A DNA stretch of 64,000 nt, taken from positions 49,444 to 113,443 of the forward strand of contig CALHFG010000018.1 in NCBI GenBank assembly GCA_938029215.1, in the 5' to 3' direction. Below are positions 2,702 through 17,091 of the stretch, piece by piece. The notes under the pieces were generated by a model. That model had not been told where the DNA came from. It did not search any database and saw nothing but the letters and a program-made list of their open reading frames with translations. Numbering within the stretch: the first letter of the stretch is position 1; each line of letters begins with the position of its first letter. Position numbers and translations under genes: made by a program. This DNA comes from an uncultured Acidimicrobiales bacterium (GTDB lineage Bacteria; Actinomycetota; Acidimicrobiia; Acidimicrobiales; SZUA-35).

Positions 2702-3736
2702 CTATATGCGTCTCGGCTCTCTGTCCTCGAGCGTGAAGATGGTATTACGAACCTCGGCTATACAGCTGTCGATCTCGGCGACGGCCGCTGCGCCTGCATC
2801 CTGCAGCCGTTTTGGGTCTGATCCGGCCGCCTGCAGTCGAATGCCGGCAGCGAACAGCCGTTGGATCACACTGTCTTGAAGTCGCCGAGCAATCCGCTCC
2901 CGCTCTTGAGCGAGACCAAGCTGTGCCTCGCGTGCGTTGCGACGCTCCACCTCTCGTGCCATTTCGTGTTGCTGTCTCTTTCGCTCAGCGGTTCGACGGG
3001 CCAGCGCGATCAACGACCCCCGTCCGAACGCGATCCCGTCGACCCGCTCCACAAGAACCTCTACCTCCGTTCGAGGGACTCCCGGCCCATGGTGAATGGC
3101 GTCGTAGGTTACGACGGCCCGCTCCCCGCTGCGGAGTAGTTCGAGCATCTCCAACAACGGCACCGCGCCTGTCGGCTGTGAGACGTCAAGAAAGGACAGT
3201 CCCGAGGACAACTCGACCGAAGGGCGACCGATCTGTTCCTGAGCGGCACGGTTCGTATACCAAAGTCCGAACGTCTCGGAGTCGAACATGAATACCGCCT
3301 CTGCGACCGAGTCGAGCGCTAGACGAATGGAGCGGTCATCGATCTCCTTTGCCCTCCGTAGAGAGATGTCTCGAACAATGGCAAGCACCGAGAACTCCTT
3401 GCCCGTTCCGACCGGACTCAGACTGATTTCGGCTAGGAACTCAGAGCCATCGCTTCGAAGCGCAACCAGGTCGCCCGGTCGTTCGCCCATGAACGCCGCA
3501 TGCGGCTGGTCCTTGTATCGGTCGTGGTGGCCCTGATGGACAGAGCGAAGCCGCTCCGGAACAAGTGCATCCATCGTTACGTCTGCAAACGACTTCGCCG
3601 AGTAGCCGAAAAGCGACGCTGCCGCGGGGTTGGCCCAGTTGATCTTGCCTTCAGTGCCGAAGACGATCATTGCATCGGGAGCCTCAAGAAGATGGGGCAG
3701 CGTTGCGGTCGTCATGGCGTCGGAGCCGGTGAACAA
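2702..3736 (-). CDS. PAS-PAS-DHp protein: truncated HisKA_3 sensor-kinase paralogue without an ATPase (CA) domain and with Gln in place of the phospho-acceptor His
   Basis: 344 aa. PAS1 (DAMIVFG...LVPERLRSVHQGHHDRY...RSDGSEF) and PAS2 are paralogous to those of the 7910-9676 kinase. The H-box reads ERERIARRLQDSVIQRLF, with the Gln287 codon caa at 2876-2878, where the kinase has RLAEDLHDLIIQRLF. The ORF stops just after DHp helix 2, and only 77 nt remain before the next gene. Confidence 0.8.
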   Translation of the reverse strand: MFTGSDAMTTATLPHLLEAPDAMIVFGTEGKINWANPAAASLFGYSAKSFADVTMDALVPERLRSVHQGHHDRYKDQPHAAFMGERPGDLVALRSDGSEFLAEISLSPVGTGKEFSVLAIVRDISLRRAKEIDDRSIRLALDSVAEAVFMFDSETFGLWYTNRAAQEQIGRPSVELSSGLSFLDVSQPTGAVPLLEMLELLRSGERAVVTYDAIHHGPGVPRTEVEVLVERVDGIAFGRGSLIALARRTAERKRQQHEMAREVERRNAREAQLGLAQERERIARRLQDSVIQRLFAAGIRLQAAGSDPKRLQDAGAAAVAEIDSCIAEVRNTIFTLEDREPRRI

Positions 3737-3742
3737 CGTTGA

Positions 3743-4162
3743 TTAGAGGGGTCGGCCCGGGAGGACCCGACCGGTAATCGCGTCGGTCTCGATCCGAAGA
3801 AATCGGCTCTTCACGCCCGCGGCCCAGGGCTCTACCTCGAGGTCATCGGCGAACATAAGATCGTCCAGACGCTCGAGTTCGTGGGCCTGTCCTCTCACCA
3901 CGATGCTCCAACCAAACTTGCGGCGTTCGTCCACGGCGTCGACTTCGAACGCAACGTTGGGGTTAAGCACCGCGGCAGCGAGCTTCAACCCTGGTGCGGT
4001 CTGCAAGTAGATCTCCCGTTCCCACACCTTGTAGTTGACGGGAAAGATGTCCGGTGTGTTGTTGATCACGACCGCTAGGCGCCCTACCGACTTCGCTGGC
4101 AGTAGCTCCCAGCACTCCTCTTCGGTCAGAGGCTCCAGTGATGACTTGAGGAATTCGCTCAT
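3743..4162 (-). CDS. pyridoxamine 5'-phosphate oxidase (PPOX)-like split-barrel flavoprotein family protein
   Basis: 139 aa. LTEEECWELL...GRLAVV...PDIFPVNY...AFEVD...GWSVVVRG pattern typical of the Pyridox_ox_2 family. It lies 6 nt upstream of the truncated sensor on the same strand. Confidence 0.8.
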   Translation of the reverse strand: MSEFLKSSLEPLTEEECWELLPAKSVGRLAVVINNTPDIFPVNYKVWEREIYLQTAPGLKLAAAVLNPNVAFEVDAVDERRKFGWSIVVRGQAHELERLDDLMFADDLEVEPWAAGVKSRFLRIETDAITGRVLPGRPL

Positions 4163-4198
4163 ATTTCAACCTTCAACCCGTTGAGCGAGGTTCATCTA

Positions 4199-4212
4199 GG
4201 GCATTTGGTCCT
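4199..4212. promoter_or_regulatory. weak DosR-box-like site GGGCA-TTTG-GTCCT (7/10 half-site matches to GGGAC-N4-GTCCC)
   Basis: Read directly in the divergent promoter between the PPOX gene (start 4162) and the USP gene (start 4303). Confidence 0.25.
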
Positions 4213-4226
4213 GGCGTCGCGATGGA

Positions 4227-4240
4227 GAGACAAAGGTCCC
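4227..4240. promoter_or_regulatory. DosR-box-like palindrome GAGAC-AAAG-GTCCC (9/10 half-site matches)
   Basis: Read directly. It is centred about 70 nt from both divergent start codons (4162 and 4303). Confidence 0.45.
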
Positions 4241-4302
4241 TAGTCCAAAGCCCGTCACGGAGGGACGCTCAATTCAGAGAAGGACAACCAAAGGAGCCGA
4301 CC

Positions 4303-5136
4303 GTGTTCAATCGAATTCTCGTCCCCCTGGACGACACAAATACCTCACTGCGAGCCCTGAAGCCAGCGGAAGCATTCGCAAAAGCCACCGGTGCCGAGCT
4401 CGTGGTCGCGACGGTGCTGTTTGCCGAGGTAATCGATGCCAACGAGCGAGCCGAAGCGCTCAAAGACCGAGTGAAGCGGTATGGCGTCGAGCCCGATCGC
4501 GCCGAAGTCAGGGTGAGCCCAGTTTCGGTTGAGGAAGGCATCGCCGACCTCATCGACGCAGACACGTTGGTCGTGATCGGCAGCGTGGGACACCCTCACA
4601 CCCAGAAGCCATTTGGAAACGTTTCAGAACAGATCATCCATAGTCGCCGTGACGGGCTCAGTGTTGTCGTCGGCCCCAAGGTCGATGTGGACAACTACAC
4701 CTTGGCCGGGCCGGTATTCGCCGCCATCGACCCGGCCGCGCCTTCGGATGAGTTGCTCGCCGCATTTACACGAATTTCCCAGGAACTTGGGATGGCTCCA
4801 TGGCTTGTCTCGGTGGTCCAGGAGATCAAGGTTCCCGCGGGCATCGGCGGTCTCCCCGGCTATGACGTGCCACTCGAAACCAATCAACTCAGGCAGTTAG
4901 CTCACCGAGTGGAGGCCCGAGGGACCGGCACCGTGAACTACGAGGTGCTTCATCACGCCAATGCGGCAAAGGAGGTCAACCGCTTCGCAAAGGACTGGAA
5001 CGCGTCACTCATCGCAGTTGCGACCCGGGAACGCGGCGGCCTCAGCCGACTCGTGTTCGGCAGCGTGGCAATTGACATCATCCGCAAGTCGGCGGCACCG
5101 GTGCTCGCCGTACACACAGACAGGACAAAGAAATGA
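4303..5136 (+). CDS. tandem universal stress protein (2 USP domains)
   Basis: Track ORF 4222-5136 trimmed to GTG 4303, which is preceded by AAGGAG (4291-4296). It begins VFNRILVPLDD..., and both halves carry the USP pattern (...VVIGSVGH..., ...LIAVATRERGGLSRLVFGSVAIDIIRKSAAPVLAV). Confidence 0.85.
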   Translation: MFNRILVPLDDTNTSLRALKPAEAFAKATGAELVVATVLFAEVIDANERAEALKDRVKRYGVEPDRAEVRVSPVSVEEGIADLIDADTLVVIGSVGHPHTQKPFGNVSEQIIHSRRDGLSVVVGPKVDVDNYTLAGPVFAAIDPAAPSDELLAAFTRISQELGMAPWLVSVVQEIKVPAGIGGLPGYDVPLETNQLRQLAHRVEARGTGTVNYEVLHHANAAKEVNRFAKDWNASLIAVATRERGGLSRLVFGSVAIDIIRKSAAPVLAVHTDRTKK

Positions 5137-5603
5137 ACAGAAAGATCGTCGTAGCAGTCGATGACTCGACCCGAGCCAACGCCGTGCTGTCGTGGGCTTT
5201 GGATCACGCCAACCCGACCGATGAAGTTGTCGCTCTCGCGGTTTGGAACCTCGGTTTGGCCGGAGGCTTCGAGAATCCGTTCTCAAGTCTCAATGAAGCC
5301 CAAATCAAGGCCACGACCCGAGTGAACAGCCTGATCGAGCGGGCGACACGAGGCCGATGGGCTGATGGCGAACCCAGTGTGTCAGTTCACGCCGACGTGC
5401 GGCACGGCGACACGGCTACCGAACTCGTGGACGCGTCGGACGGGGCAGACCTCCTGGTGCTTGGGAACTGCCACTACAACAGGCCGGGTCAGTTGGGTTC
5501 GGTTGCCAAAGCGACGCTCTATGGCGCCAAGTGCGCCGTCGTCCTGGTGCCCGTACAGGTGGATGCTGACGCCGAGACTGGCACGATGACGGCGACCATC
5601 TGA
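5133..5603 (+). CDS. universal stress protein
   Basis: 156 aa. KIVVAVDDS...LLVLGNCHYNRPGQLGSVAKATLYGAKCAVVLV. ATGA overlap with the upstream USP gene. Confidence 0.85.
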   Translation: MNRKIVVAVDDSTRANAVLSWALDHANPTDEVVALAVWNLGLAGGFENPFSSLNEAQIKATTRVNSLIERATRGRWADGEPSVSVHADVRHGDTATELVDASDGADLLVLGNCHYNRPGQLGSVAKATLYGAKCAVVLVPVQVDADAETGTMTATI

Positions 5604-5623
5604 CCCCTATATCCACCGGCCAT

Positions 5624-7303
5624 CTACGGGCTACGCCTCGACAGATGCTCTCGATAGTGGGCAACGGCGGCATTGATCGTTGGGTGAATTGATTGCCGAC
5701 CCAGGCGGTCGATCATGCCGCTGCGACTCAGCACGTCGAGTACATCTGGGTTGGGTCGGGCAAAGGCGATGGTGACGCCCCGATCGGTGAGCGTCTCATG
5801 AAGTTCGAGAAGGTGATCCGCTGCGGTCGCATCGATGGAACCCACCCCCTCCATGTCGAGGATCATGTGGTGCTCCTCGCCCGGCTGGTGTTCGGCGAGA
5901 TCGAACAGGGTCGACCGGTAATGCTCCGCGTTGGCGAAGAACAGTGGGGCATCGAACCGGTAGACCAATAGGCCTACCTCGGGCGACGCTCGAGGGTCGG
6001 TCTTGTCGATCCAGCCGGCCAAACCCTCTGCTGCGCCGAGGGCTGCATGGGCAGGGCGAGCAATCCGTGCCATCGCCATCAAAATCGCCAACGCCACTGC
6101 AATCAGGACTCCAAGCAACAGGTCGGTCGTGATCACGGCAAGGCACGTCACCCCCGCCAGCGCAGCTTCCTGACCGTTGATTGCCACGAGGTCACGAAAT
6201 CCGCGGAGGTCGATGACGGCAACGGCAGCGGCGACAATCACCGCCGCCAGTGCTGGCCGGGGAATCTCGGCAAGAACCGACGTCCCCACCAAGAGGAACA
6301 CCACGACGGTTACGAACGTCACGATGCTGGACATCTGTGACCGGCTCCCGATGGTCGCCGGCACGATCGATCGGGACGCGCTGGATGACATCGGGAAGCC
6401 GCCCGTGAAGGCAGCCGCAAGATTGATGGCTCCGAGCGAACCGAGTTCTCGGTTTGCGTCGATGGCGTAGCGCTTCTTGGACGCGATAGCCCGAGCCGTC
6501 AAGACGTTGTCGGTAAAGCCGATCAGGGTCAGTCCGAACGCGGCGGGAACCAACGACCGGACGTCCTCCGCACTTACTCCAGGCATCGAAAACGATGGCA
6601 GGGCGGCGTCGATCTCTCCAACAAGAGCAACATCGAGATCGAGCAGTCGAACGGCGACCACGGCAACGGACAGCGCTATCAGCGCCCCGGGCAGCGCGGG
6701 CCGAAGTCGCCGTAGCCCCAAGATGATCGCTAAAGCTGCGATGCCAAGGCTGGTAGACGTCGGATCGATCTCTCCGAGCTGCGTCACGAACTGCCAAGAT
6801 CGCGGAAAAAAGCTGTCAGCGGTGATGCCGACACCGGTGAAACTTCGCAGCTGGCTGCTGAGGAGCGTGAGACCAACACCGCTGATGTAGCCGACAAGGA
6901 CCGGTTTCGAAAGTAGATCGGCGACGAACCCCAACCGCAAAACGCCGCCTACCGCCGCGAGCAGCCCCACCATTCCCGCCAGCAAAGCCATGAGCTCGAG
7001 ATAGCGCTGAGGGTCCCCGTCGGCCAATGGAGCGATCGAAAGCGCTGCCAAGACCGCGGTCCCCGGCTCTGGGCCGACCCCGAGATGGCGACTGGTGCCA
7101 ACGAGGGCATACACCGGCAGGGCAACGAGCGCGGCTCGGAACCCGGCCGACGGCGGCAAGCCGCCCAATTCGGCGTACGCCATCGCCTGTGGAACCAACA
7201 TTGCCGCCACGGTGAGTCCCGCAAGTACATCGGGCTTGCACCAATGGGCGCGGTAGGTACGGGACCGTAGATCTTGGGGAAGTGAGGACGCTGGAGTGGA
7301 CAC
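5624..7303 (-). CDS. SulP family inorganic anion transporter with C-terminal STAS domain
   Basis: 559 aa. Multi-pass membrane core (AGLTVAAMLVPQAMAYAELGGLPP...) followed by STAS (LVYRFDAPLFFANAEHY...VLDVLSRSG). Confidence 0.9.
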   Translation of the reverse strand: MSTPASSLPQDLRSRTYRAHWCKPDVLAGLTVAAMLVPQAMAYAELGGLPPSAGFRAALVALPVYALVGTSRHLGVGPEPGTAVLAALSIAPLADGDPQRYLELMALLAGMVGLLAAVGGVLRLGFVADLLSKPVLVGYISGVGLTLLSSQLRSFTGVGITADSFFPRSWQFVTQLGEIDPTSTSLGIAALAIILGLRRLRPALPGALIALSVAVVAVRLLDLDVALVGEIDAALPSFSMPGVSAEDVRSLVPAAFGLTLIGFTDNVLTARAIASKKRYAIDANRELGSLGAINLAAAFTGGFPMSSSASRSIVPATIGSRSQMSSIVTFVTVVVFLLVGTSVLAEIPRPALAAVIVAAAVAVIDLRGFRDLVAINGQEAALAGVTCLAVITTDLLLGVLIAVALAILMAMARIARPAHAALGAAEGLAGWIDKTDPRASPEVGLLVYRFDAPLFFANAEHYRSTLFDLAEHQPGEEHHMILDMEGVGSIDATAADHLLELHETLTDRGVTIAFARPNPDVLDVLSRSGMIDRLGRQSIHPTINAAVAHYREHLSRRSP

Positions 7304-7322
7304 CTAGCTTGAACTGTACGTG

Positions 7323-7751
7323 CTAGGTGATTCGCCGTCCGGTGATCTTGGCGGGCACGATGCGTACCCAGCGATTCTGACCCGGATCCTCTGCCCACGG
7401 CCGGAGCCCAAGGTTCTCCGCCGTCTCGAAACCGGCGTGATCTTCGATTTCCTCGGCTTGCCCCACGACGAGAACGCTCCAGCCGGTGCGACTATCACGG
7501 TCCCACCGATCTACTTCGAACGCAATGTTCTGGTCAGAGGCGACGGCGTGGAGTTTGCGCCCTGCCGAGGTGCGGAACACGATCGTGTCGTCGACGAATC
7601 GATAGTTCACCGGCAAAATATGCTGTTCTCCAGCAAAGCTGAACCCAATTCTTCCTACCGGGGTACGTAAAAGAAGTGACTTGCACTCGCTTACTGTTAG
7701 CTCGCCCAGAGCGGTCGGTCCCGAAGTAGTGGGGGTGGCGGGTACAGCCAT
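7323..7751 (-). CDS. PPOX-like split-barrel flavoprotein family protein
   Basis: Track ORF 7323-7799 trimmed to ATG 7751, which is preceded by AAGGAG. It is a paralogue of 3743-4162 (LTVSECKSLL...GRIGF...HILPVNY...AFEVD...GWSVLVVG). It lies 19 nt upstream of the SulP gene on the same strand. Confidence 0.8.
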   Translation of the reverse strand: MAVPATPTTSGPTALGELTVSECKSLLLRTPVGRIGFSFAGEQHILPVNYRFVDDTIVFRTSAGRKLHAVASDQNIAFEVDRWDRDSRTGWSVLVVGQAEEIEDHAGFETAENLGLRPWAEDPGQNRWVRIVPAKITGRRIT

Positions 7752-7826
7752 GCTGAACTCCTTTGGTTCGCGGGAGAGGCTCTTTCTCCCTAGATCCATC
7801 CTGTTCTGTTCGTTTGTCTCGTTCTA

Positions 7827-7840
7827 GGGTCCTTAGTCCT
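7827..7840. promoter_or_regulatory. DosR-box-like site GGGTC-CTTA-GTCCT (8/10 half-site matches)
   Basis: Read directly in the divergent promoter between the PPOX gene (start 7751) and the sensor kinase (start 7910). Confidence 0.35.
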
Positions 7841-7909
7841 CTGAGCTCGCTGTGCAGTCAAAGAGCTAGCATGTGGCCCTGAACTTGGCGACCGTGCGGA
7901 GGACTGACC

Positions 7910-9676
7910 GTGGACAACTTTGACGGCACCGAGACCGAACGTGCCGCATGGGCCATGGTGGAAAGCTCCCCCGATGGCATGCTCCTCGCCGATGAACAGG
8001 GTCAGATTCTGCTCGTCAACACCCAAGTTGAAGAACTCTTTGGGTACACACGCGCCGAGCTGCTGGGGCTGAGCATCGAGGTGTTGGTGCCGGAACGGCT
8101 ACGGAAAGTGCATTCCGCGCACCGAACCCGATACCGAGTCGACCCGAAGCCTCGCTCGATGGGCGGAGACCTCGACCTTCGGGCACTCCGCAAAGACGGA
8201 ACAGAGTTCCCGGTCGAAGTGTCACTCAGTCCGCTCCAGACCGGAAGCGAGACCCGTGTGATCGCCACGATTCGTGACGTCACGTTGCGGTATGAAGCCG
8301 AGGCCGAGTCGCACGCCGTGCTTCACACCATGAACGCCACTCGCGATGGCGTATTCATGTTCGACCCCGACACTTTGGCCTTTACCTATGTAAACGAAGG
8401 TGCCGTGCGGCAACTCGGCTACACGAGGGACGAACTCCTCGGCATGACCCCACTTCACATCAAACCGATGTTCGATGAAGGGTCGTTTCGAGAGCTGTTG
8501 CGACCCCTTGTTTCCGACGAAGTGAAATCTCATGTCTTTACGACAAGTCATCGACGCAAAAGCGGTGAAGACGTCCCTGTCGAGATCATCCTCGAATACC
8601 CAGAGGCAGTAGATGCGGGTCGCAGTCGCCGGCTGGTGGCCATCGTCCGAGACATCTCAGAGCGAGTCCAGGCCGATCTGGCGTTGGCCACGAGCGAGGA
8701 AGCATTCCGCACCGCGTTTGACTCCGCCCCGGTCGGCATGGCGCTGGTGGACTTCAATGATCCGGTACGACGCCCGATCACCCGGGTGAATCAAGCTCTT
8801 TGTGAGTACTTGGGTTATGAAGCCGACCAGCTTTTGACGATGGGGTTCGCAGAACTCACCCATCCCGATGATGCCGAAGTCAGCGATCAACAAGCGCTTC
8901 GAGCCGTCGATGGAAAAGCGTCCCAGTTTGCGGTAGAGAAGCGATACCTGCACGCCGATGGACATGCCGTTTGGGCGTGGGTCCACTCGGCGGTGCTCGA
9001 TAACGGCATCGACTCCCCTACCAGCGTGCTGGTACACGTTGCGGACATGACCGAAGCACGCCGAGCTCAGCAGGATGAGGCTCGTCTTCGGATCCTGGAG
9101 GACCGAGAGCGGCTCGCTGAAGACCTCCATGATCTCATCATCCAACGACTGTTTGCAGCAGGAATGGGTCTGCAGTCGCTGCAGACCCGCGTTACCGACC
9201 CGATCACCGCCGACCGTCTGGCCCGTACCGTCGACGAGTTGGACCACACCATCGCGGATCTCCGGAACGCCATTTTCCGCCTGCACTCTCCGTTTGAATC
9301 AAGCGTGCGGCACGACATCGAAGAGGCGGTCCACAATGCCAATCGCTCACTTGGGTTCACGCCTCAGCTCACCTTTGAAGGCGACCCCAGTCAGATCGCA
9401 GCTCCGGTAGCCGAACAACTGATGCCAGTTCTGTCAGAGGCACTCATGAATATTGCCAAACATGCTGATGCAACCGCCGCCGCGGTATCGCTCGCAATCG
9501 ACGAGCGGGTGGAGCTCACAATCCGCGACAACGGCTGCGGGTTCGTCGAGCAGCGTACGGGAGGTCATGGGATCAATAACATGCGCTCCCGAGCCGAGCG
9601 ACTTGGTGGCACTGTCGCCCTCGAGTCACCCGCCGACGGCGGCACACAGTTGGTGTGGACCGCCGTCAACCGCTAG
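7910..9676 (+). CDS. cytoplasmic sensor histidine kinase: PAS(FixL-like)-PAS-PAS-HisKA_3-HATPase_c
   Basis: 588 aa. GTG start lies 8 nt after GGAGGA. No TM segment. H-box is RLAEDLHDLIIQRLF (His407 codon 9128-9130). N-box is EALMNIAKHA, with G-boxes DNGCGF and GHGINNM. PAS1 aligns without gaps to the B. japonicum FixL haem-PAS as I recall it, and His68 (8111-8113) falls on the proximal His. Confidence 0.9.
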   Translation: MDNFDGTETERAAWAMVESSPDGMLLADEQGQILLVNTQVEELFGYTRAELLGLSIEVLVPERLRKVHSAHRTRYRVDPKPRSMGGDLDLRALRKDGTEFPVEVSLSPLQTGSETRVIATIRDVTLRYEAEAESHAVLHTMNATRDGVFMFDPDTLAFTYVNEGAVRQLGYTRDELLGMTPLHIKPMFDEGSFRELLRPLVSDEVKSHVFTTSHRRKSGEDVPVEIILEYPEAVDAGRSRRLVAIVRDISERVQADLALATSEEAFRTAFDSAPVGMALVDFNDPVRRPITRVNQALCEYLGYEADQLLTMGFAELTHPDDAEVSDQQALRAVDGKASQFAVEKRYLHADGHAVWAWVHSAVLDNGIDSPTSVLVHVADMTEARRAQQDEARLRILEDRERLAEDLHDLIIQRLFAAGMGLQSLQTRVTDPITADRLARTVDELDHTIADLRNAIFRLHSPFESSVRHDIEEAVHNANRSLGFTPQLTFEGDPSQIAAPVAEQLMPVLSEALMNIAKHADATAAAVSLAIDERVELTIRDNGCGFVEQRTGGHGINNMRSRAERLGGTVALESPADGGTQLVWTAVNR

Positions 9677-9682
9677 AGGCGC

Positions 9683-10132
9683 TCAGTCGGCGTCTTCCTT
9701 CACGACCAAGACCGAGCAGTGAGCATGATGAATAACCTTGGTGGAGACGCTTCCGTGTAGCAGCCGCTTCGCCGGGCCTTCGCCTCGAGATCCGACGACG
9801 ATCAAATCAGCTCCCGTCGCATCGGCAACGTCGAGAATCCCGTCCGCTGGATCGGCACCCATCATGTGAGTAACGGGGTCAACGTCAGCAAGCTTGCAGA
9901 TACTGATCGCTTTGGTGATGCGTTCCTCGCCGAAGTAGTCGGCGTGTAACTGCGGCCAAAACTCCGATGGCAGCGCCTTCTTCAGCTCATAGAGCTGTCC
10001 CGGGGTCAGCGGACGGATGGCCGTAACGATATGGAGCTTCGCACCCTGTTCGGCGGCGATCCGAGCAGCTGCGGTAACCGCCTTTTCGGCGTTTGTTGAG
10101 CCGTCGGTTGCGGCGACGATTGTCTTGAACAT
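9683..10132 (-). CDS. universal stress protein
   Basis: 149 aa. MFKTIVAATDGS...DLIVVGSRGEGPAKRLLHGSVSTKVIHHAHCSVLVV (G-x2-G-x9-G-S ATP-binding type). Confidence 0.9.
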   Translation of the reverse strand: MFKTIVAATDGSTNAEKAVTAAARIAAEQGAKLHIVTAIRPLTPGQLYELKKALPSEFWPQLHADYFGEERITKAISICKLADVDPVTHMMGADPADGILDVADATGADLIVVGSRGEGPAKRLLHGSVSTKVIHHAHCSVLVVKEDAD

Positions 10133-10191
10133 AGTGACCTCCTGTAGATGGGCTCCCTTTCAGCATGCGTCGCCTTGGGCACTCCTCGGAA

Positions 10192-10205
10192 GGGCCCAAG
10201 GTCCC
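10192..10205. promoter_or_regulatory. DosR-box-like palindrome GGGCC-CAAG-GTCCC (9/10 half-site matches)
   Basis: Read directly in the divergent promoter between the USP gene (start 10132) and the HPF-like gene (start 10333). Confidence 0.45.
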
Positions 10206-10332
10206 TCGGTCACGACACCTGCGGTGAAGGTTCGGTATCGACCATCGGTGACCTACGGCCCTTCTACCGCTGTCGTATACCGACGAGGGTGGAGGTGAGC
10301 ACCAAAGCTGTGCCAATAACGAAGGAGAGCCA

Positions 10333-11754
10333 ATGCCGGATGGAAGAGTTCACCGCATCGACCCCGACACCGAGTCGGTATACATCATTCGCCGAGGTCG
10401 CACCTACCGAGCACCCCTGAACGAAGTCGAGGCTGCAGCCCGGGTTCCGAGCGCTCGCGTGCAGTTCGGTCTGCGCAGGCGCAACGGCGAAGAAAGCGCC
10501 GAAGGCGTGACCTTGCGTCGAGGCACGCGCACCAACAAGCGTCACCGCCGGTTCGGCGACCTCACCGGAGCCGCCCGTCCCGGCGCCAAGACTCGAACCC
10601 GGACCCAGCAAGACTTCGGAATCGATGTCACGACACAGCCGCGCCGAGTCGCGGAGGCATGGGTGAACGCTATGAATACCGCGGACTTCGACGGCGCAGC
10701 CTCGCTGTACTTGCCCGAGGCCAAAGTTCACACCGATGCCGGCACCATTTCTGGACGCCGCAAGGTTCGGGCCGCCCTCGAAGACTGTGGATGGGAAGTT
10801 GGGCAATCTGATGTCACGTTCCACGTCGACGATCGCTTCGTGGACATCCATCACGGCGGTTCGGCCCACGAGCTGGATTCTTCGCTCATGATCAGCAAAG
10901 GTGCGATCGTTGAGCACTGGTTCGGACCCAGCTATGAAAGCGGTGCCGAGAAAGAGGACGATCAGCCTGTCATCGAGGTTGTAAACCGAACCGGTGTCAG
11001 CGCCGTAGCGGTCACGAATGCCGAGGAACGAATGTCGACGGTGATCGCCGGCATTCCGGAGAAGGTTTTGTCGGCGCGCATCAAATTGGCACTCGCTCCG
11101 AAACCACGGTCCATGCTTGCCGCCCACGTCGAAACAACGTTCGAACTGGAGAACGGCGGTGTCATTCGCGTCCACGCCGGCGCAACAACGCTTTCCGAGG
11201 CGATCGACCAGGCGCTCTCAAAGTTCGCCGCAAAGCTGGAACGCACACGCGATCGAGATCGACACAACCCGACGGGCGTAGCTCCGAACCCCAACCAATG
11301 GCGTCACGCCAACCGGCCAAGCGACGGGCTTCCCTATTTCGATCGACCTCCGGAAGAACGGGAAATCGTTCGCCACAAGACAGTCGCGGCAGCGCAGATG
11401 ACGATCGAGGAGGCCGCATGGGACGCCGATCTCATGGCGTTTGACTTCTTCCTCTTCGAGGAGATCTCCACCGGTCATGATTGCCTCCTCGAACGCAATG
11501 ACGACGCATACGTCGTGTACGGCATGGGACTGGGAGTCCAGACCATCCCCAGCGCGATGGGAGATCTCAACACCAGCGATGCGACCGTTCCCACAGAACG
11601 GCTGAGTGCTGCGATCGAGATACTCCATGGTTCCGGAGCGCCGTACCACTTCTTCATTAACGAAGCGACCGGCAGAGGGAACGTGATCTATCGACGACTA
11701 GACGGCCACTACGGCTTGATCACGCCTCGGGTCAGCGTCACTCGTACCGACTGA
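10333..11754 (+). CDS. ribosome hibernation factor of the Rv0079/RafH type (HPF N-domain plus two tandem HPF C-terminal-like domains), with an extra ~200-aa N-terminal region (small beta-barrel, basic linker, NTF2/SnoaL-like domain)
   Basis: 473 aa. ATG is preceded by GAAGGAGAG. Residues 212-306 (VIEVVNRTG...ARIKLAL...VETTFEL...IRVHAGATTLSEAIDQALSKFAAKLER) fit the S30AE/YfiA fold pattern. Residues 343-396 (EIVRHKTV..MTIEEAAWDADLMAFDFFLFEEISTGHDCLLER) and 420-466 (PYHFFINEATGRGNVIYRRLDGHYGLITP) are two HPF-CTD-like repeats. Residues 103-197 (AEAWVNAMNTADFDGAASLY...GAIVEHWF) look NTF2/SnoaL-like. Confidence 0.85.
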   Translation: MPDGRVHRIDPDTESVYIIRRGRTYRAPLNEVEAAARVPSARVQFGLRRRNGEESAEGVTLRRGTRTNKRHRRFGDLTGAARPGAKTRTRTQQDFGIDVTTQPRRVAEAWVNAMNTADFDGAASLYLPEAKVHTDAGTISGRRKVRAALEDCGWEVGQSDVTFHVDDRFVDIHHGGSAHELDSSLMISKGAIVEHWFGPSYESGAEKEDDQPVIEVVNRTGVSAVAVTNAEERMSTVIAGIPEKVLSARIKLALAPKPRSMLAAHVETTFELENGGVIRVHAGATTLSEAIDQALSKFAAKLERTRDRDRHNPTGVAPNPNQWRHANRPSDGLPYFDRPPEEREIVRHKTVAAAQMTIEEAAWDADLMAFDFFLFEEISTGHDCLLERNDDAYVVYGMGLGVQTIPSAMGDLNTSDATVPTERLSAAIEILHGSGAPYHFFINEATGRGNVIYRRLDGHYGLITPRVSVTRTD

Positions 11755-11781
11755 GCACAAGGAGCGGGTGTTCGGTCCCAC

Positions 11782-12504
11782 TCACTCGTACCGTTTGCGA
11801 GCCCGTTCATCGAGACGGGCCGCAAATGCGGCGGCCTCGGTTCGGCGGGTCATCCCCAGCTTCGCCAGGAGATTCGACACGTAATTCTTGACCGTCTTTT
11901 CGGCAAGGAACATCTCATCAGCGATCTGACGGTTAGACCTTCCCTCACCGATGAGGTCGAAGATCCGGTGTTCTTGCGGGGTCAACGTGGAGACCAGGCC
12001 TTCTTCGCTGTCCTTGAGCCGTCCCATCGCCATCCGAACCGTGGCCGCATCGAGCAATGCAGCGCCCGAAGAGACTTTTCTGATCGACTCGACCAAATCA
12101 TTGCTCCGAATTTGCTTCAGCACATATCCAGCGGCCCCCGCGAACGAGGCATCGACTATGGCGTGGTCATCTGCAAACGACGTGAGAATCAAGCAGGCGA
12201 TCTCGGGAAACTGTGAGCGAATATCGCGGCAGACCTCGATCCCGTTGCCATCTTCGAGTCGCACATCGAGGACTGCGACATCGGGCTGGCACCGCTCGAC
12301 CTCGCGCAATGCCTCGGTGGCTCCGGCTGCCTCGCCAACAACGACGATGTCGGGTTCGGCCTCGAGGAGGTCGGCAACTCCGCGGCGAACAATCTCGTGG
12401 TCGTCGAGAAGAAAGACCCGGATCGAGTCGGTCGAGCTAGTGGGTGTCACGTCGTCTGCGCTCATCATCTTTTCCATTGTCTCGACAACTGCCATAGCTG
12501 CCAT
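11782..12504 (-). CDS. dosR: DevR/DosR-like NarL/LuxR-family response regulator
   Basis: Receiver domain plus LuxR HTH. Long blocks nearly identical to M. tuberculosis DevR as I remember it: [13 protein letters not shown] vs [34 protein letters not shown] vs [27 protein letters not shown], and [25 protein letters not shown] vs [25 protein letters not shown]. The start is uncertain: ATG 12504 is chosen, with alternatives at 12495, 12477, 12468, 12465 or 12567. Confidence 0.9.
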   Translation of the reverse strand: [240 protein letters not shown]

Positions 12505-12531
12505 GGTGCCCACCGATGGTAGGCGCCGGTA

Positions 12532-12545
12532 GGGACCAACGTCCC
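12532..12545. promoter_or_regulatory. perfect DosR-box-type palindrome GGGAC-CAAC-GTCCC (10/10 half-site matches)
   Basis: Read directly. It overlaps the stop codon of the upstream tandem-USP gene (12545-12547) and is centred about 34 nt upstream of the chosen dosR-like ATG (12504). Confidence 0.55.
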
Positions 12546-13426
12546 TATCCGAGCTCCCTTGCAACATCAGGTAGCACGACCGTCACCAACGACGGCTGGT
12601 GGGTGAGAGCGGTGGCGACCGACCCGAGCAGTAGATAGGCGACACCACGAGTACCCCGGGCACCGAGAACGAGAGCGTCAGCACCCTGGGCCACCTTTGG
12701 CAGTTCCGATCGAGGATCACCCGGAACAACCACGATCTCCACCAACTGTTCCGCTTCGTCGTGGGACGCCACCGACGCGACGATCTGACGGACCTCTTCG
12801 GTTGTCGATCGATGAAGGTCTGACTCAACCGATCGGCCGGCGCTATAGGAATAGGCCAGCGAAGCAAAGGTCGATGCCGCTACGACGGTGCCGTCCTTGG
12901 CTACGCGGTCCAACGCCCATCGAAGGGCGCGTTTTGAATTCGGCGATCCGTCGATGCCTACTACTAGTCTCCGAAGCGGTCCACGAACACCAGCGCTCGA
13001 GGGCACGATCGCAACCGCTGACTGCGCGTGCTTTACGCAGTGGGACCCCGTTGACCCGAGCAAGGCGCTCGCGAGCCCACCGCGCCCGCGACACCCGACC
13101 ACGAGCAGATCGGCGGTCATCGAGGCTTCAACGAGCATCTGTCCCGCGTAGTCGGCCGCAACGACATGAGAAGACAACAAGCCAGGGTCCACGGCCTCGA
13201 TGACTGCAGCAGCACGCCGCTCTGCGACCTTTCGGAATATCTCAAGATCGATGGGCTGGGGCGGCGGACCCAGCCCATCGAATGTGGGGCCGATGCTGTA
13301 GGCAGTGGACACGCAGACGGTGCCGAGCTGTTTCTCAGGATCCGTGGCCCACTCGAGGGCAAGTCGAGACTCATCGGAACCATCCACGCCTACGACCACG
13401 GTGCACTTACGGTCCGGTATGTCCAT
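12545..13426 (-). CDS. tandem universal stress protein (2 USP domains)
   Basis: 293 aa. VVVGVDGSDES...LLVVGCRGRGGLASALLGSTGSHCVKHAQSAVAIV, then LVVGIDGSPNS...ALVLGARGTRGVAYLLLGSVATALTHQPSLVTVV. It lies directly upstream of the dosR-like gene, like Rv3134c-devR in M. tuberculosis. Confidence 0.85.
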   Translation of the reverse strand: MDIPDRKCTVVVGVDGSDESRLALEWATDPEKQLGTVCVSTAYSIGPTFDGLGPPPQPIDLEIFRKVAERRAAAVIEAVDPGLLSSHVVAADYAGQMLVEASMTADLLVVGCRGRGGLASALLGSTGSHCVKHAQSAVAIVPSSAGVRGPLRRLVVGIDGSPNSKRALRWALDRVAKDGTVVAASTFASLAYSYSAGRSVESDLHRSTTEEVRQIVASVASHDEAEQLVEIVVVPGDPRSELPKVAQGADALVLGARGTRGVAYLLLGSVATALTHQPSLVTVVLPDVARELG

Positions 13427-13462
13427 GTGATCTGCTCGCTGACCCGGTTCCGCGTGGCCCGG

Positions 13463-13825
13463 TTAGACCGTGGCCTCGAACTGGTGCATGTGAAACTGCT
13501 CGAGCGCTTCTAGCGCTTCGGATCCGTACACGGCGGCCGGTCCGCCTCCCATCAGAATGGCAACACCGACGGCCTCTTTGATCTCTGGCGGGGTAGCTCC
13601 AGCTTTCAGCGCGTCATAAGTGTGGAGTGCGATGCACCCATCGCAGTGACTGGTGATGCCAATCGCCAGGGCAATGAGTTCCTTGGTCTTGGTGGAGAGC
13701 TCGCCTTCGGCCATCGACTGGCGGTGCAGCTCACCAAACCCAGCCATTACCTCAGGCAACTCGTTTCCTAGATTCCGAATTCCCTTCAGAAGATCGTCTC
13801 GGCGGTGTATGAACTTGGTTGCCAT
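13463..13825 (-). CDS. carboxymuconolactone decarboxylase (AhpD-like) family protein with CxxC
   Basis: Track ORF 13463-14128 trimmed to ATG 13825 (120 aa). ELIALAIGITSHCDGCIALH is the AhpD/CMD CxxC core. The longer form would overlap the divergent USP gene and its promoter. Confidence 0.85.
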   Translation of the reverse strand: MATKFIHRRDDLLKGIRNLGNELPEVMAGFGELHRQSMAEGELSTKTKELIALAIGITSHCDGCIALHTYDALKAGATPPEIKEAVGVAILMGGGPAAVYGSEALEALEQFHMHQFEATV

Positions 13826-13885
13826 GGGCCCCTCATTTCGGTTAGGTGATGCTCTCATTGAAGGCGGTAGCCGTCGCGGTCCCCA

Positions 13886-13899
13886 GAGTCCTTGGTCCC
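13886..13899. promoter_or_regulatory. DosR-box-like site GAGTC-CTTG-GTCCC (8/10 half-site matches)
   Basis: Read directly in the divergent promoter between the CMD-USP-dosR-like operon (start 13825) and the USP gene (start 13989). Confidence 0.35.
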
Positions 13900-13988
13900 A
13901 ACTGCGGTATTGACCAAAGCCTCTAGCCCGATGTGTGCCGCGCACATAGGTTCGTGTCAGCCAACTCGGTCGAAAGAAAGGCCATCCG

Positions 13989-14813
13989 ATGACACATGCA
14001 ACCGCGGGAAGCCCCCCATCACTCATTGGTGATCGAACAATCTTCGAGATCGCCCTGCCGGTCACGTTCACATCAGCAGACGACCGAGTCCGCACGTTCG
14101 CCATCGAGCTATGCCGAAGGTGGAGCATTCCCCTCCGGCTGATCTACGTCTCTGACTCGATTGAGCCGTCGATACCGCAGCTCGAAGATCTGGCCGCGCA
14201 TATCAGGCGGCGCCACGAGGCGCTGACGGTAAAGACCAGCCATGTCTATGGTCACGACGCCGCGGTCGGGATTTGTTCCACCGTGTTCCCTCGATCCTTG
14301 GTTCTGATGCCCACCGACCACGCTGACGAGTGGAAGATGAAGGGATCGGTGGCCGAGATCGTCGTGATGTCGGCCGGGGTTCCCGTGCTCCTGTTTGGGC
14401 CCAACGTCGGCACGTTCCGACCCGGCGCAGACATCGTTGTTGGTCTCGATGGTTCAGCCTCTGCCGAGGCAGTGCTGCCCGCCGCCCTCGGGCTGGCACA
14501 GGCATTCGACGCCCAACTCTGGCTTGTTCAAGTCGTTCCGGTTGGCGTTGACGACGAAATCAACGTGGACATCGCAACCTACATCCAGGATCAGGCGGCG
14601 GTGATCGAGATCCCTCATCATCGAACCGGCTGGGAACTCATTCACAGCAACAACCCTGTGTCGGCGCTCGCCTCGTTCGCCGAGGCCCGCAATGCATCGA
14701 TGATCCTTGCCGGTGCTCGCGGTCGTACCGATCCTCACCGTCAATCGATGGGGAGCATAAGCATGGGTTTGGTGTCGACCGGCACCGTGCCGGTGCTGAC
14801 CCTTGCGGTGTAG
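13989..14813 (+). CDS. tandem USP-domain protein (first domain divergent)
   Basis: 274 aa. The second half is clearly USP (IVVGLDGSASAE...MILAGARGRTDPHRQSMGSISMGLVSTGTVPVLTL). The first half has the USP layout but weak motifs. Confidence 0.75.
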   Translation: MTHATAGSPPSLIGDRTIFEIALPVTFTSADDRVRTFAIELCRRWSIPLRLIYVSDSIEPSIPQLEDLAAHIRRRHEALTVKTSHVYGHDAAVGICSTVFPRSLVLMPTDHADEWKMKGSVAEIVVMSAGVPVLLFGPNVGTFRPGADIVVGLDGSASAEAVLPAALGLAQAFDAQLWLVQVVPVGVDDEINVDIATYIQDQAAVIEIPHHRTGWELIHSNNPVSALASFAEARNASMILAGARGRTDPHRQSMGSISMGLVSTGTVPVLTLAV

Positions 14814-14818
14814 ATCGG

Positions 14819-15526
14819 TCAGAACTGACTGGCGTTGGTAACGCTCTGCCAGTCAGCGGCCACATTGCCCTTGTCCGGAAAGCCGCCCATGTCCTTCAGA
14901 ATCTTTGCCTGGTGCATGAGGTTCCAGGCCATGATCGTGGTGTTCCGGTTGGTGAAGTCGTTGTCGAAACCAAACGGACGACCGGTATCAGGGTCGGCAT
15001 CACCGTAACTCGGCCCCGGGCCGGCTTCGCCGATCCATCCGCAGTCCGCCTGCGGTGGCACCACATAACCAATGTGCTGGAAGGCATACAGCAGTTCCAT
15101 ACTTACCGCCTTAACACCGTCTTCGTTGCCGGTGACGATGCACCCCGCGGTCTTCCCATAGTAGAGATACTGCCCCTTGGCGTTCTTCTCGCCACTGGAC
15201 GCGTACATGCGCTCGATTGCCAAGGTCGCCAAGCTGCTCTTTACTCCGAGCCAAATTGGGCTGCCGATCACCAGAATGTCCGCTGCCATGATCTTTGCTT
15301 GAATCGAGGGCCACTCATCGGCTTCGGCCCCGTTGTCGGCAACCGCGTCGGTAACCATGCCGAATCCAATGCGATGATCCAGCATGTGGATGAGTTCGAC
15401 GTCGACACCTTCCGAGCGCATGATTCCGGCGCTCTTTTCCATCAATTTCCTCGTGTGCGAATCGGCTGCATGGCGCTGAAGCGACGCATTGAGGTAGACA
15501 GCGGACAATCCTTCGAATTCGGGCAT
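14819..15526 (-). CDS. flavodoxin-like fold NAD(P)H-dependent FMN reductase family protein
   Basis: 235 aa. AVYLNASL...ADILVIGSPIWLGVKSS...GKTAGCIVTGNEDG pattern of multimeric flavodoxin/FMN-reductase proteins. Confidence 0.8.
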   Translation of the reverse strand: MPEFEGLSAVYLNASLQRHAADSHTRKLMEKSAGIMRSEGVDVELIHMLDHRIGFGMVTDAVADNGAEADEWPSIQAKIMAADILVIGSPIWLGVKSSLATLAIERMYASSGEKNAKGQYLYYGKTAGCIVTGNEDGVKAVSMELLYAFQHIGYVVPPQADCGWIGEAGPGPSYGDADPDTGRPFGFDNDFTNRNTTIMAWNLMHQAKILKDMGGFPDKGNVAADWQSVTNASQF

Positions 15527-15604
15527 TCGTTCGTTTTAGTCGATCAGCGCGACGCAAGCTCCATCGCGACCTCCCTTCGGGCGATCCACAGCTAGTCTCA
15601 AGCC

Positions 15605-16147
15605 GTGGACGCTGAGGGCTACACCGACGACCCTGGATGGTTCGTCGATACCCGACTAGGCAGGATGATCATCTCGCTGATCGGCATCGGCTTTATCTAC
15701 TTCCTGGTGATCTGGAATTTGCCGGAGAGCGCCGTGCGCGACGAACTGCGTCCGGGGCTCGCTCCCATCATTCGCCCCATGGGAATCGCTCAAGACTGGG
15801 GGGTCTTTGCGCCCAACCCTGTCAGCACGTCGTACCGGGTTGAGGCCGACGTGGAAATGGCTGATGGGACCGTCGTTCGCTACATGTTTCCCGATGGGGA
15901 CCCTTACCTCGGGGCCTATCGAGAATTCCGGTGGCGAAAGTATGAGAGCCGGATCCGCAAGGACGAGAATCGGCGTCGATGGCGACCCACCGCCGAATGG
16001 ATTCGGGATCAGTTCCCCGACGGCGAGGTCCGGACGATCGATCTGATCCGACGAACCCGACCCGTCCCCGAACCCGGTACCAACGAGACCTCTCAATGGG
16101 ACGAAGAGTCGATCTTCAGCGTTACGTTCCCTGTGGGGTCCCCATGA
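15605..16147 (+). CDS. small N-terminally membrane-anchored protein, partner of the downstream HTTM protein (SdpA/DUF5819-like by context only)
   Basis: 180 aa. One TM (MIISLIGIGFIYFLVIW), then a QDWGVFAPNP motif. Its stop overlaps the HTTM gene start (ATGA at 16144-16147). GTG 15605 is uncertain, and ATG 15665 is possible. Confidence 0.6.
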   Translation: MDAEGYTDDPGWFVDTRLGRMIISLIGIGFIYFLVIWNLPESAVRDELRPGLAPIIRPMGIAQDWGVFAPNPVSTSYRVEADVEMADGTVVRYMFPDGDPYLGAYREFRWRKYESRIRKDENRRRWRPTAEWIRDQFPDGEVRTIDLIRRTRPVPEPGTNETSQWDEESIFSVTFPVGSP

Positions 16148-17091
16148 TCTTCCGACGGATCGCCACCGCGTGGAGCAGCTTCTGGTTTTCTCCGCACTCG
16201 ACGATCAACATCACTTGGATTCGAATCCTCCTGGGGGCTACCTCGCTCGTATGGGGTCTTGCGCTCATTCCCGACTTCGAAACCTTCTACTTCGATGACG
16301 GCTTGTTTGCCGAGCCCCGTTACGGCGCCTATCACACCGGCGTGTTGCAGTGGCTCCGGCAGGACTGGGCCGCTGTCGCTGTCTTGGGTGTTCTTCTGGC
16401 GAGTTCTTTGCTTGTCACATTCGGGTATCTGGTCCGACTGGCGGCCCCCATTCTCTTCTATGCACTGATGTCTCTGCAGCAAGACATTCCGGTCTTGATG
16501 AACGCCAGCGACAACCTGCTGCGCATCATCGCCATGTACTTCGCCGTGTTCGCCTTGCTGACCCCCTCTCGATATCTCTCGCTCGGGCCGCGGGGAATCA
16601 AGAGGGAAGACCAAAGTCGACGGTGGCCTGTCGGTCCGGCGTGGATTCTTCGAATCCTTCAGTTGCAGCTCACCATCATCTATTTGGATACCGCAATTGA
16701 GAAATCGACGGGAAGCAGATGGCACAACGGCACCGCGGCGTCGATCGCACTGGGCCTGGAAGAGTTCGAACGGTTCTACGTACCCGAGTTCGTGCGAACG
16801 AACTTGATCATGGGCAATATCGGAACATGGCTCGCCATCGGTTTGGAGGCAACCCTTCCGTTGCTCCTTTGGAATCGTAGAACCCGGCTGATCGGCGTGG
16901 TGCTTGGGGTCGGTATGCACTTTGTGTTCGACTACGCGATGCGGCTTGGATACTTCTTCCCCGGCATGTTCATCGCGTACATCGCGTTCATGAGGCCAGG
17001 CGACTGGGCCAAGATAAAGGCACTTCCCGGTAGGGTGCTCCGGCGGCGGGCCGCAACTCCGGCCGACCCGCTTCTTCCAAAACCTGCCTAG
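16144..17091 (+). CDS. HTTM domain (vitamin-K-dependent gamma-carboxylase-related) integral membrane protein
   Basis: Track ORF 15979-17091 trimmed to ATG 16144. WFSP...WIRILLG, NASDNLLRIIAMYFAVFALLTP, LQLQLTIIYLDTAIEKSTGSRWHNGTA, LPLLLWNRRTR and GVGMHFVFDYAMRLGYF match the HTTM layout. Confidence 0.75.
   Translation: MIFRRIATAWSSFWFSPHSTINITWIRILLGATSLVWGLALIPDFETFYFDDGLFAEPRYGAYHTGVLQWLRQDWAAVAVLGVLLASSLLVTFGYLVRLAAPILFYALMSLQQDIPVLMNASDNLLRIIAMYFAVFALLTPSRYLSLGPRGIKREDQSRRWPVGPAWILRILQLQLTIIYLDTAIEKSTGSRWHNGTAASIALGLEEFERFYVPEFVRTNLIMGNIGTWLAIGLEATLPLLLWNRRTRLIGVVLGVGMHFVFDYAMRLGYFFPGMFIAYIAFMRPGDWAKIKALPGRVLRRRAATPADPLLPKPA

Follow-up and report, generated by a model that had tools for sequence, protein, structure and literature searches.

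The DosR regulon has been studied almost only as a persistence system of tuberculosis. The locus described here raises the question of whether a regulon of this type also exists in an uncultured Acidimicrobiales bacterium, and which sensors would drive it there. We analysed a 64-kb stretch of DNA (hereafter the window) from the metagenome-assembled genome (MAG) of this soil-type bacterium. The window is part of the 82-kb metagenome contig ENA ERZ6864376, and identical pieces of it occur in three Logan assemblies. At 2702-14813 (~12 kb), Pfam and box scans identified 13 genes and at least five promoter regions that carry a box. Judged by its genes and boxes, this cluster is very probably the form that the DevR/DosR (OsdR) regulon of actinobacteria, a two-component system for stress survival, takes in Acidimicrobiales. 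The initial annotation had already suggested a DosR-regulon-like island at this place, and every gene that it named was confirmed by Pfam. The genes are listed below, where L011 denotes the best syntenic relative of the cluster, a locus from another uncultured Acidimicrobiales MAG.

2702-3715, minus strand: truncated sensor paralogue (tHK), 337 aa; PAS and HisKA_3 without HATPase_c in Pfam, arranged as a haem-PAS, a PAS and a DHp domain ending after helix 2
3743-4162, minus strand: PPOX-like split-barrel protein 1 (PPOX1); Pfam Pyridox_ox_2, PDB matches 6eci and 3fkh, 71% identity in L011
4303-5136, plus strand: tandem-USP gene; Pfam USP, in an operon (4303-5603) with the next USP gene, gene calls in L001, syntenic in L011
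5133-5603, plus strand: single-domain USP gene of the same operon (4303-5603); Pfam USP, syntenic in L011
5624-7303, minus strand: SulP-family transporter, its C-terminal domain being STAS, encoded downstream of PPOX2; Pfam SulP and STAS
7323-7751, minus strand: PPOX-like split-barrel protein 2 (PPOX2); Pfam Pyridox_ox_2, 71% identity in L011
7910-9676, plus strand: soluble sensor kinase, 588 aa; three PAS, HisKA_3 and HATPase_c in Pfam
9683-10132, minus strand: single-domain USP; Pfam USP
10333-11754, plus strand: RafH/Rv0079-like ribosome hibernation factor; Pfam S30AE and S30AE_C
11782-12504, minus strand: DevR/OsdR-type response regulator; Pfam REC (Response_reg) and GerE
12545-13426, minus strand: tandem-USP gene directly upstream of the regulator, as in Rv3134c-devR; Pfam USP
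13463-13825, minus strand: AhpD/CMD-family protein with a CDGC motif; Pfam CMD
13989-14813, plus strand: USP protein, 274 aa, with one USP domain supported by Pfam (aa 149-270)

PPOX1 is probably co-transcribed with tHK.

The regulator and its boxes

When the regulator was compared with all PDB chains, DevR (3c3w) came first with 232.7 bits and an E value of 3.5e-68, followed by VraR (146.6 bits), NarL (105 bits) and the receiver domain of M. tuberculosis NarL (54.9 bits). This agrees with the initial annotation, which had placed a DevR-like regulator directly behind a tandem-USP gene; DevR is the best solved relative, and the USP gene at 12545-13426 adjoins the regulator. Regulator and DevR are 55% identical over 206 columns and 69% identical in the helix-turn-helix (HTH) domain, and the recognition helix FLAEKTVKNYVS is the same in both. 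All of D8, D9, D54, T82, K104, Q153, K179, K182, N183, R196, R197 and T198 of DevR are kept; R72, K168 and T205 differ. K179, K182 and N183, which lie on helix alpha9, read GGGACT/TGTCCC in the transcription activation complex of DosR, and the roles that we assign to positions of the regulator, including Q153, R196 and R197, are taken from the same work (PMC13486717). Its phospho-Asp is Asp80, numbered on the 240-aa gene call of the MAG. Both this call and the longest open reading frame (ORF; 261 aa) probably begin too early (12465-12567). Based on the distance from box to ATG and on the starts of the orthologues in two related loci, L085 and L086, translation probably begins at 12468 or 12465. 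The score margin over the NarL types, the DNA-reading residues and the conserved palindromes before its own gene and its neighbours support the reading of the protein as a DevR-like regulator.

Boxes resembling GGGAC-N4-GTCCC had been reported in four divergent promoter regions and at one internal site. All five carry a box, but the strict pattern (≤1 mismatch) is not enriched in the window as a whole, with 7 matches against 4.7 expected. The strict pattern was replaced by a DevR/OsdR pattern chosen a priori and applied to intergenic DNA, and by a position weight matrix (PWM) derived from other genomes. The pattern GGGNC-N4-GNCCC (≤1 mismatch), which covers the consensus of M. tuberculosis as well as that of Streptomyces OsdR, has 53 matches in 64 kb. 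Six of them fall within the intergenic DNA of the island (879 bp), against an expectation of ~0.7 there. The PWM was symmetrised and built from 22 sites beside USP, PPOX, regulator and kinase genes in six loci (L005, L007, L008, L011, L020 and L030). Among the ~128,000 positions scored in the window, the top five all lie in island intergenic DNA, which makes up 1.4% of the sequence; in rank order they start at 12532, 10192, 10248, 13886 and 4227, and the sites at 4199 and 7827 come next. The boxes, to which no strand was assigned, are as follows.

4199-4212 GGGCATTTGGTCCT and 4227-4240 GAGACAAAGGTCCC: two boxes in the divergent PPOX1/USP region; PWM 8.8 and 13.1
7827-7840 GGGTCCTTAGTCCT: box in the divergent PPOX2/kinase region, found with the generic pattern; PWM 7.4
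10192-10205 GGGCCCAAGGTCCC and 10248-10261 GTGACCTACGGCCC: two boxes in the divergent USP/RafH-like region; PWM 20.2 (rank 2) and 15.8 (rank 3)
12532-12545 GGGACCAACGTCCC: perfect box between the stop codon of the tandem-USP gene and the regulator; PWM 23.3, the maximum of the window
13886-13899 GAGTCCTTGGTCCC: box in the divergent CMD/USP region; PWM 13.6 (rank 4), with a weaker second site at 13910

Several of these positions are conserved. The region of L011 orthologous to the PPOX1/USP promoter carries GGGCCTTTAGTCCC, and the site orthologous to the 7827 box is GGGTCCTTGGTCAC, the top score in L011; the orthologous intergenic positions of this locus were also found by a PWM built without its own sites. 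Orthologous boxes precede the regulator in L011, L085 and L086, and in the latter two a strong box lies 72.5 bp ahead of the orthologous regulator ATG. The box at 12532 is listed here as a putative autoregulation site. Box centres lie 67-82 bp before most start codons, a spacing that fits a site overlapping the -35 region followed by a short leader; for comparison, the DosR site of M. tuberculosis hspX is at -43.5 (PMC13486717). A scan for sigma-70-like promoters gave 0 against 3.2 expected, a result that is uninformative for activator-dependent actinobacterial promoters.

The sensor kinase

The initial annotation described the kinase as a soluble PAS-PAS-PAS-HisKA_3 protein instead of a GAF kinase, and this description holds. 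The protein consists of PAS-1, which is a haem-PAS (aa 14-133), PAS-B, PAS-C, HisKA_3 (His407, DLIIQ) and HATPase_c, and its H-box motif LHDLIIQ contains H-DxxxQ. Neither Pfam nor the PDB search found a GAF domain in it, so that the tandem GAF of DevS and DosT is absent. PDB matches of the transmitter include the ATP-binding domains of DevS (3zxo, 50.5 bits) and DosT (3zxq, 47.1 bits) and also the HisKA_3 kinase DesK.

The 14 best PDB matches of PAS-1 are all haem-PAS proteins, with FG214 (10jx) at 82 bits, BjFixL at 70, RmFixL at 54 and DosP/EcDOS at 50; LOV domains come next at 31 bits. The 10jx structure is the haem-binding PAS of FG214, a one-component redox switch of Fimbriimonas, whose haem is bound proximally by His156 and additionally by Met172 when reduced or by His175 when ferric (bioRxiv 10.64898/2026.03.15.711900). 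In an ungapped alignment His68 of the kinase corresponds to FG214 His156 and BjFixL His200, the proximal His on helix F-alpha. His71 aligns with FG214 His159, Met84 with FG214 Met172, and Arg72 and Tyr75 with FixL Arg206 and Tyr207. Among 18 homologues, which range down to 44% identity, seven residues never vary (His68, Arg72, Tyr75, Pro79, Arg82, Met84 and Gly85), and His71 almost never does (conserved in ≥90%). PAS-1 is thus predicted by homology to bind a b-type haem with His/Met coordination, nearer to that of EcDOS than to that of FixL.

The nearest homologues of the kinase come from MAGs of Acidimicrobiales, Ilumatobacter and Rhabdothermincola, and some members of the family have a GAF instead of PAS-C. 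Haem-PAS kinases adjoin DevR-like regulators (50-82% identical) in eight Acidimicrobiia loci (L005, L007, L008, L011, L013, L020, L030 and L049). In Actinomycetes the orthologous regulator is found with GAF-type DevS kinases (L015, L022, L041, L045, L052, L084, L043 and L077). These kinases, from Amycolatopsis, Nocardioides, Prauserella, Actinokineospora and others, have the layout GAF-GAF-HisKA_3-HATPase_c with transmitters 40-46% identical; the regulators beside them are 53-60% identical to that of the window, and a PPOX gene is often present. Because the same regulator family pairs with GAF-type kinases in Actinomycetes and with haem-PAS kinases in Acidimicrobiia, the sensor module is, as read from these loci, swapped, and one output system is joined to different haem sensor folds. 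The JGI annotation already labels some relatives of the haem-PAS kinase as DevS. A non-exhaustive literature search found nothing on a haem-PAS DevS or on a pseudo-kinase of the Gln type described below.

A further arrangement was seen in Streptomyces sp. NPDC001480 (L038, 9842-11836), where a haem-PAS plus PAS module is fused to SpoIIE (a PP2C phosphatase) and HATPase_c_2 (anti-sigma-kinase-like). The fusion adjoins a SulP-STAS gene, a USP gene, an HTH-PPOX fusion and a DevR-like regulator, and its domains suggest a partner-switching output for the same sensor.

From what is observed, namely gene content, homology, the positions and conservation of motifs and the covariation of the Gln with ATPase loss, we propose a mechanism in which haem binding, the signal, the sign of the regulation and the function of the paralogue are predicted. 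A b-type haem in the first PAS, ligated by His68 and with Met84 as the likely sixth ligand, would enable the soluble kinase to sense O2 or else NO, CO or redox state. Upon loss of the gas ligand the kinase would autophosphorylate at His407 and pass the phosphate to the DevR-like regulator. The phosphorylated regulator would then bind AGGGACC-WW-GGTCCCT palindromes in five promoter regions, centred ~67-82 bp before the start codons, and activate the five USP genes, the two PPOX-like genes, the RafH-like, SulP-STAS and AhpD-like genes and those of the kinase, the regulator and tHK.

Several points weigh against the regulon assignment and this mechanism. NCBIfam holds no DevR- or DevS-specific model, and its top match for the regulator, MadR, is uninformative at 180 bits, below the cut-off of 300. 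The DevR assignment was made from PDB score margins and from residue and motif conservation. The boxes at 7827 and 4199 score only moderately, and in the window the genes of kinase and regulator do not adjoin each other. In the distal pocket of PAS-1, FixL Arg220 is replaced by Leu and FG214 His175 by Asp, and because these two residues are not conserved the ligand chemistry cannot be read from homology. Moreover, the closest characterised PAS, that of FG214, serves redox switching and not gas sensing. Finally, a role in hypoxia and dormancy is what we infer for a cluster whose source is a MAG.

The same observations on PAS-1 could be explained by a DevR-type regulon whose first PAS binds no haem, or senses redox state or haem availability. 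The signal would then be redox or energy stress or stationary phase, not oxygen, similar to the broader role of OsdR in Streptomyces. The redox-driven ligand switch of FG214 and the absence of the O2-binding Arg220 of FixL are in line with this explanation, as is the fact that Streptomyces OsdR controls stress and development genes. We nevertheless regard it as unlikely. Throughout the family neither the proximal His nor the Met varies, FG214 is followed among the nearest relatives of PAS-1 by the O2 sensors FixL and DosP, and the cargo of USPs, RafH-like factor and PPOX proteins agrees with hypoxia-induced DosR regulons.

The truncated paralogue

The gene at 2702-3715 had been annotated as a kinase-dead truncated paralogue. 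This was borne out, as Gln280 (codon 2876-2878) stands at the position of the phospho-His and HATPase_c is absent. The H-box reads LQDSVIQ, in which DSVIQ (DxxxQ) is kept. Pfam places HisKA_3 at residues 278-338, the protein ends 58 residues past the Gln, and only 78 bp separate the gene from the neighbouring TetR gene. Its haem-PAS keeps His60, His63 and Met76 and matches FG214, DosP and FixL in the PDB.

Among the HisKA_3 proteins fetched, all eight members of the Gln-type family have LQD instead of LHD and strictly keep DxxxQ; none has a CA domain, and each stops 53-58 residues past the Gln. Of the His-type proteins 115 of 116 keep a long tail, and the exception lies on a 1.4-kb contig. The Gln-type members form at least five clusters at 50% identity, with the sensor arrays PAS-PAS, three PAS, and three PAS plus GAF. 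In L085 (251-2784) and L086 (271-2333) the Gln-type gene starts at the stop codon of the regulator gene and is translationally coupled to it, so that it holds the position of devS in M. tuberculosis; the regulators of these loci are 81-85% identical to that of the window, and USP and PPOX genes come next. In the window and in L011 the Gln-type gene follows PPOX1, behind DevR-type boxes. The L011 copy (4968-7017, minus strand) is split into two overlapping ORFs, probably by an assembly indel error; read through, it would consist of three PAS, a GAF and a DHp domain with Gln, like the protein cluster P0244. Judged by its relatives, tHK is not a gene wreck and is a member of a conserved family.

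These data also bear on whether the cluster is a regulon at all. If tHK were a decaying fragment and the boxes chance GC-rich palindromes, the locus would be a loose neighbourhood of stress genes without common control, and both the lack of window-wide enrichment of the strict pattern and the failure to find sigma-70-like promoters would agree with this. Such an explanation is extremely improbable, and it is already contradicted by the PWM ranks, the conserved boxes and the covariation of Gln with CA loss: the five best scores of the 64-kb window are concentrated in the island intergenic DNA, box positions are kept in L011, L085 and L086, and the ends of the Gln-type proteins are uniform across clusters with different sensor arrays.

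What tHK does within a DevR-type regulon can be narrowed down from its DHp domain. On the face of helix 1 it is identical to the full kinase at +1, +4 to +11, +14 and +15 from the His/Gln position, and because of this near match tHK should meet the same regulator. Lacking both the phospho-His and an ATPase domain, it cannot act as a kinase. Most likely it modulates the phosphorylation state of the regulator in a haem-dependent way; it could do so as a stand-alone DxxxQ phosphatase (for feedback, or for a reset on re-aeration), as a scaffold or as an antikinase. The water molecule that takes part in dephosphorylation is placed, in HisKA_3 kinases, by the Gln of DxxxQ (PMC5231405, PMC3510030), which speaks for a stand-alone phosphatase. 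A simple phosphatase role is opposed by the laboratory-evolved, CA-less ChrS_CA-fs, which acted as a phosphatase-deficient protein and raised the activity of its regulator (PMC9491836).

In the latter case ChrS_CA-fs, without phosphatase function, boosted the cross-phosphorylation of its regulator by the paralogue HrrS, for which the DHp was needed (PMC9491836). By analogy tHK might be a positive modulator or scaffold that recruits the regulator or stimulates the full-length kinase, as DivL or ChrS_CA-fs do, and the nearly identical helix-1 face would suit this role. Two observations make us doubt it somewhat, serious candidate though it is: DxxxQ is strict in all eight Gln-type members despite the loss of kinase function, which fits retained phosphatase chemistry, and heterodimers of truncated ChrS were undetected by bacterial two-hybrid assay (BACTH; PMC9491836).

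Returning to the family as a whole, we tentatively suggest, as a possibility short of an even chance, that the haem-PAS-DHp proteins of the Gln type, which have no ATPase, form a natural class of signal-gated pseudo-kinases that has gone unrecognised, and that in Acidimicrobiales they took the devS position beside the gene of the DevR-like regulator. They would set the phosphorylation of the regulator as stand-alone, haem-controlled DxxxQ phosphatases or as antikinases or scaffolds, and the phosphorylation itself would come from a separate haem-PAS kinase.

Cargo, flanks and known systems

The cargo proteins largely match their initial description. Five USP genes are present as claimed, but Pfam supports seven USP domains and not eight, with none in the N-terminal half of the 13989-14813 product. 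The sole PDB relatives of the tandem USP before the regulator are Rv2623/TB31.7. Both PPOX-like genes carry Pyridox_ox_2, and in M. avium a PPOX-family gene beside dosR is DosRS-dependent (PMC11876180). The factor described as Rv0079/RafH-like has S30AE and S30AE_C, its C-terminal domain being of the enlarged RafH type, and its residues 228-466 align with RafH 16-256 (8whx) at 107.6 bits (E 7e-30), compared with 28 bits for canonical HPF. It has a 227-aa N-terminal extension (10333-11013) made up of a small basic domain and a SnoaL_2/NTF2-like domain. The extension is clade-specific, being seen only in L011 and in protein cluster P0240; a search with it found one other cluster only, and no function could be assigned. 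SulP-STAS is absent from L011, and a 40% identical copy is found in the Streptomyces DevR-like locus L038. The AhpD/CMD protein is 73% identical in L011 and also follows a box in L030 and L049.

A flavodoxin-like reductase had been counted as cargo together with the SulP-STAS and AhpD-like CxxC proteins. The domains of all three were confirmed, but the reductase was rejected as a member and probably lies outside the regulon, because the fifth divergent region upstream of it (15443-15604) has no box by pattern or PWM and no homologue was found in L011.

14819-15526, minus strand: FMN_red flavodoxin-like reductase adjoining the island; Pfam

It is followed by a DUF5819-like gene and an HTTM-domain gene (15605-17091), for which no link to the regulon was seen.

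Outside the island, every PWM score above 8 falls inside a long ORF, except for two weak sites in a divergent region on the left.

1-615, minus strand: phosphofructokinase (PFK) gene, divergent to the acetyl-CoA hydrolase/transferase gene
651 and 674, no strand: weak boxes in the divergent PFK/acetyl-CoA hydrolase-transferase region (616-723); PWM 8.4 and 10.1
724-2046, plus strand: acetyl-CoA hydrolase/transferase gene, syntenic in L011 (79% identical) and in the box-rich locus L075 (57%)

Because of these two boxes, and because the acetyl-CoA hydrolase gene adjoins the island in L011 and also lies in the box-rich L075, the regulon may extend leftward beyond the TetR gene (2070-2624). L075, from an uncultured Acidimicrobiia MAG, carries at least seven DevR-type boxes (PWM 14.8-21.2) within 20 kb, in a larger cluster of the same regulon type. 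A mobile island was considered and rejected. GC content is flat at ~0.60 across the window and the remainder of the window holds core genes (PriA, CoaBC, CarAB, AroKB, AlaS), including on the flanks, so that the cluster is chromosomal without visible mobility.

Compared with DevR(DosR)-DevS/DosT of M. tuberculosis, the cluster has a regulator with 55% identity and the same DNA-reading residues, GGGAC-N4-GTCCC-type boxes, and a box before a regulator that lies behind a tandem-USP gene, as in Rv3134c-devR. Shared cargo includes USPs (relatives of Rv2623), PPOX-like proteins and a RafH/Rv0079-type factor, and both systems have a HisKA_3 plus HATPase_c transmitter with DxxxQ and two paralogous sensors. 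The M. tuberculosis sensors, however, have a tandem GAF with haem in GAF-A, whereas those of the window are haem-PAS proteins, the kinase with two more PAS. The kinase gene of the window stands outside the regulator operon, and its second sensor has neither phospho-His nor ATPase. Nitroreductase (acg), hspX, nitrate and tgs genes are missing from the window cluster, which instead has SulP-STAS and AhpD-like cargo, and the core of the box is CC-WW-GG in contrast to CT-WW-AG in M. tuberculosis. With M. smegmatis RafH/Rv0079 (8whx) the likeness covers the whole of RafH, which lacks the N-terminal extension; the position of the window gene behind DevR-type boxes is consistent with the association of RafH with hypoxia.

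In Streptomyces coelicolor, OsdK-OsdR (SCO0203/0204) comprises a DevR orthologue with a contiguous, USP-rich cluster and the 16-nt palindrome AGGGCCGATCGGCCCT (PMC5069765). Like the window, this system combines a USP-rich cluster, many divergent promoters with sites, and autoregulation. It differs in that OsdK is described as a DosT orthologue and is thus of the GAF type, in contrast to the haem-PAS sensors here, and in that its cluster includes nitrate reductase and development targets, whereas the window has a kinase-dead paralogue. DosRS homologues in other Actinomycetes are mentioned in a passage of PMC11876180 that cites Gerasimova 2011.

FixL-FixJ, EcDOS/DosP and FG214 share with the window a homologous PAS-1. 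In that of the window kinase the proximal His aligns with BjFixL His200 and a Met stands where FG214 has Met172; FixL also drives a LuxR/GerE-type response regulator. However, the transmitter of the window kinase is HisKA_3 (DevS/NarX class) and that of FixL is HisKA, FixL Arg220 and FG214 His175 are not kept, and a DevR-type stress regulon takes the place of nif/fix genes, cyclic di-GMP turnover or a one-component HTH as the output. The pseudo-kinases DivL, RocA and ChrS_CA-fs (PMC9491836) resemble tHK in being derived from sensor kinases, in lacking autophosphorylation and in keeping the DHp to meet a regulator or kinase; ChrS is, in addition, an actinobacterial HisKA_3 protein acting alongside a paralogous full kinase. 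Unlike them, the tHK family is natural and conserved, has Gln for His and no CA domain and keeps DxxxQ and the haem-PAS, and some of its members stand in the devS position, translationally coupled to a DevR-like gene.

That the same regulator, DNA motif and core cargo recur in an uncultured class which branches deeply among the actinobacteria supports the view of an ancient environmental low-oxygen programme. DevR and a DevS-type transmitter are joined to unrelated haem folds, GAF in Actinomycetes and PAS in Acidimicrobiia, and they form a natural pair for comparing the ways in which one HisKA_3 switch is driven by different haem domains. The conserved kinase-dead paralogue, in turn, is a testable case of pseudo-kinase use in two-component systems. 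DevR-type, USP-rich clusters outside Mycobacterium are already known, and what is unusual in the window is the sensor set only: haem-PAS sensors together with a conserved Gln-type pseudo-kinase.

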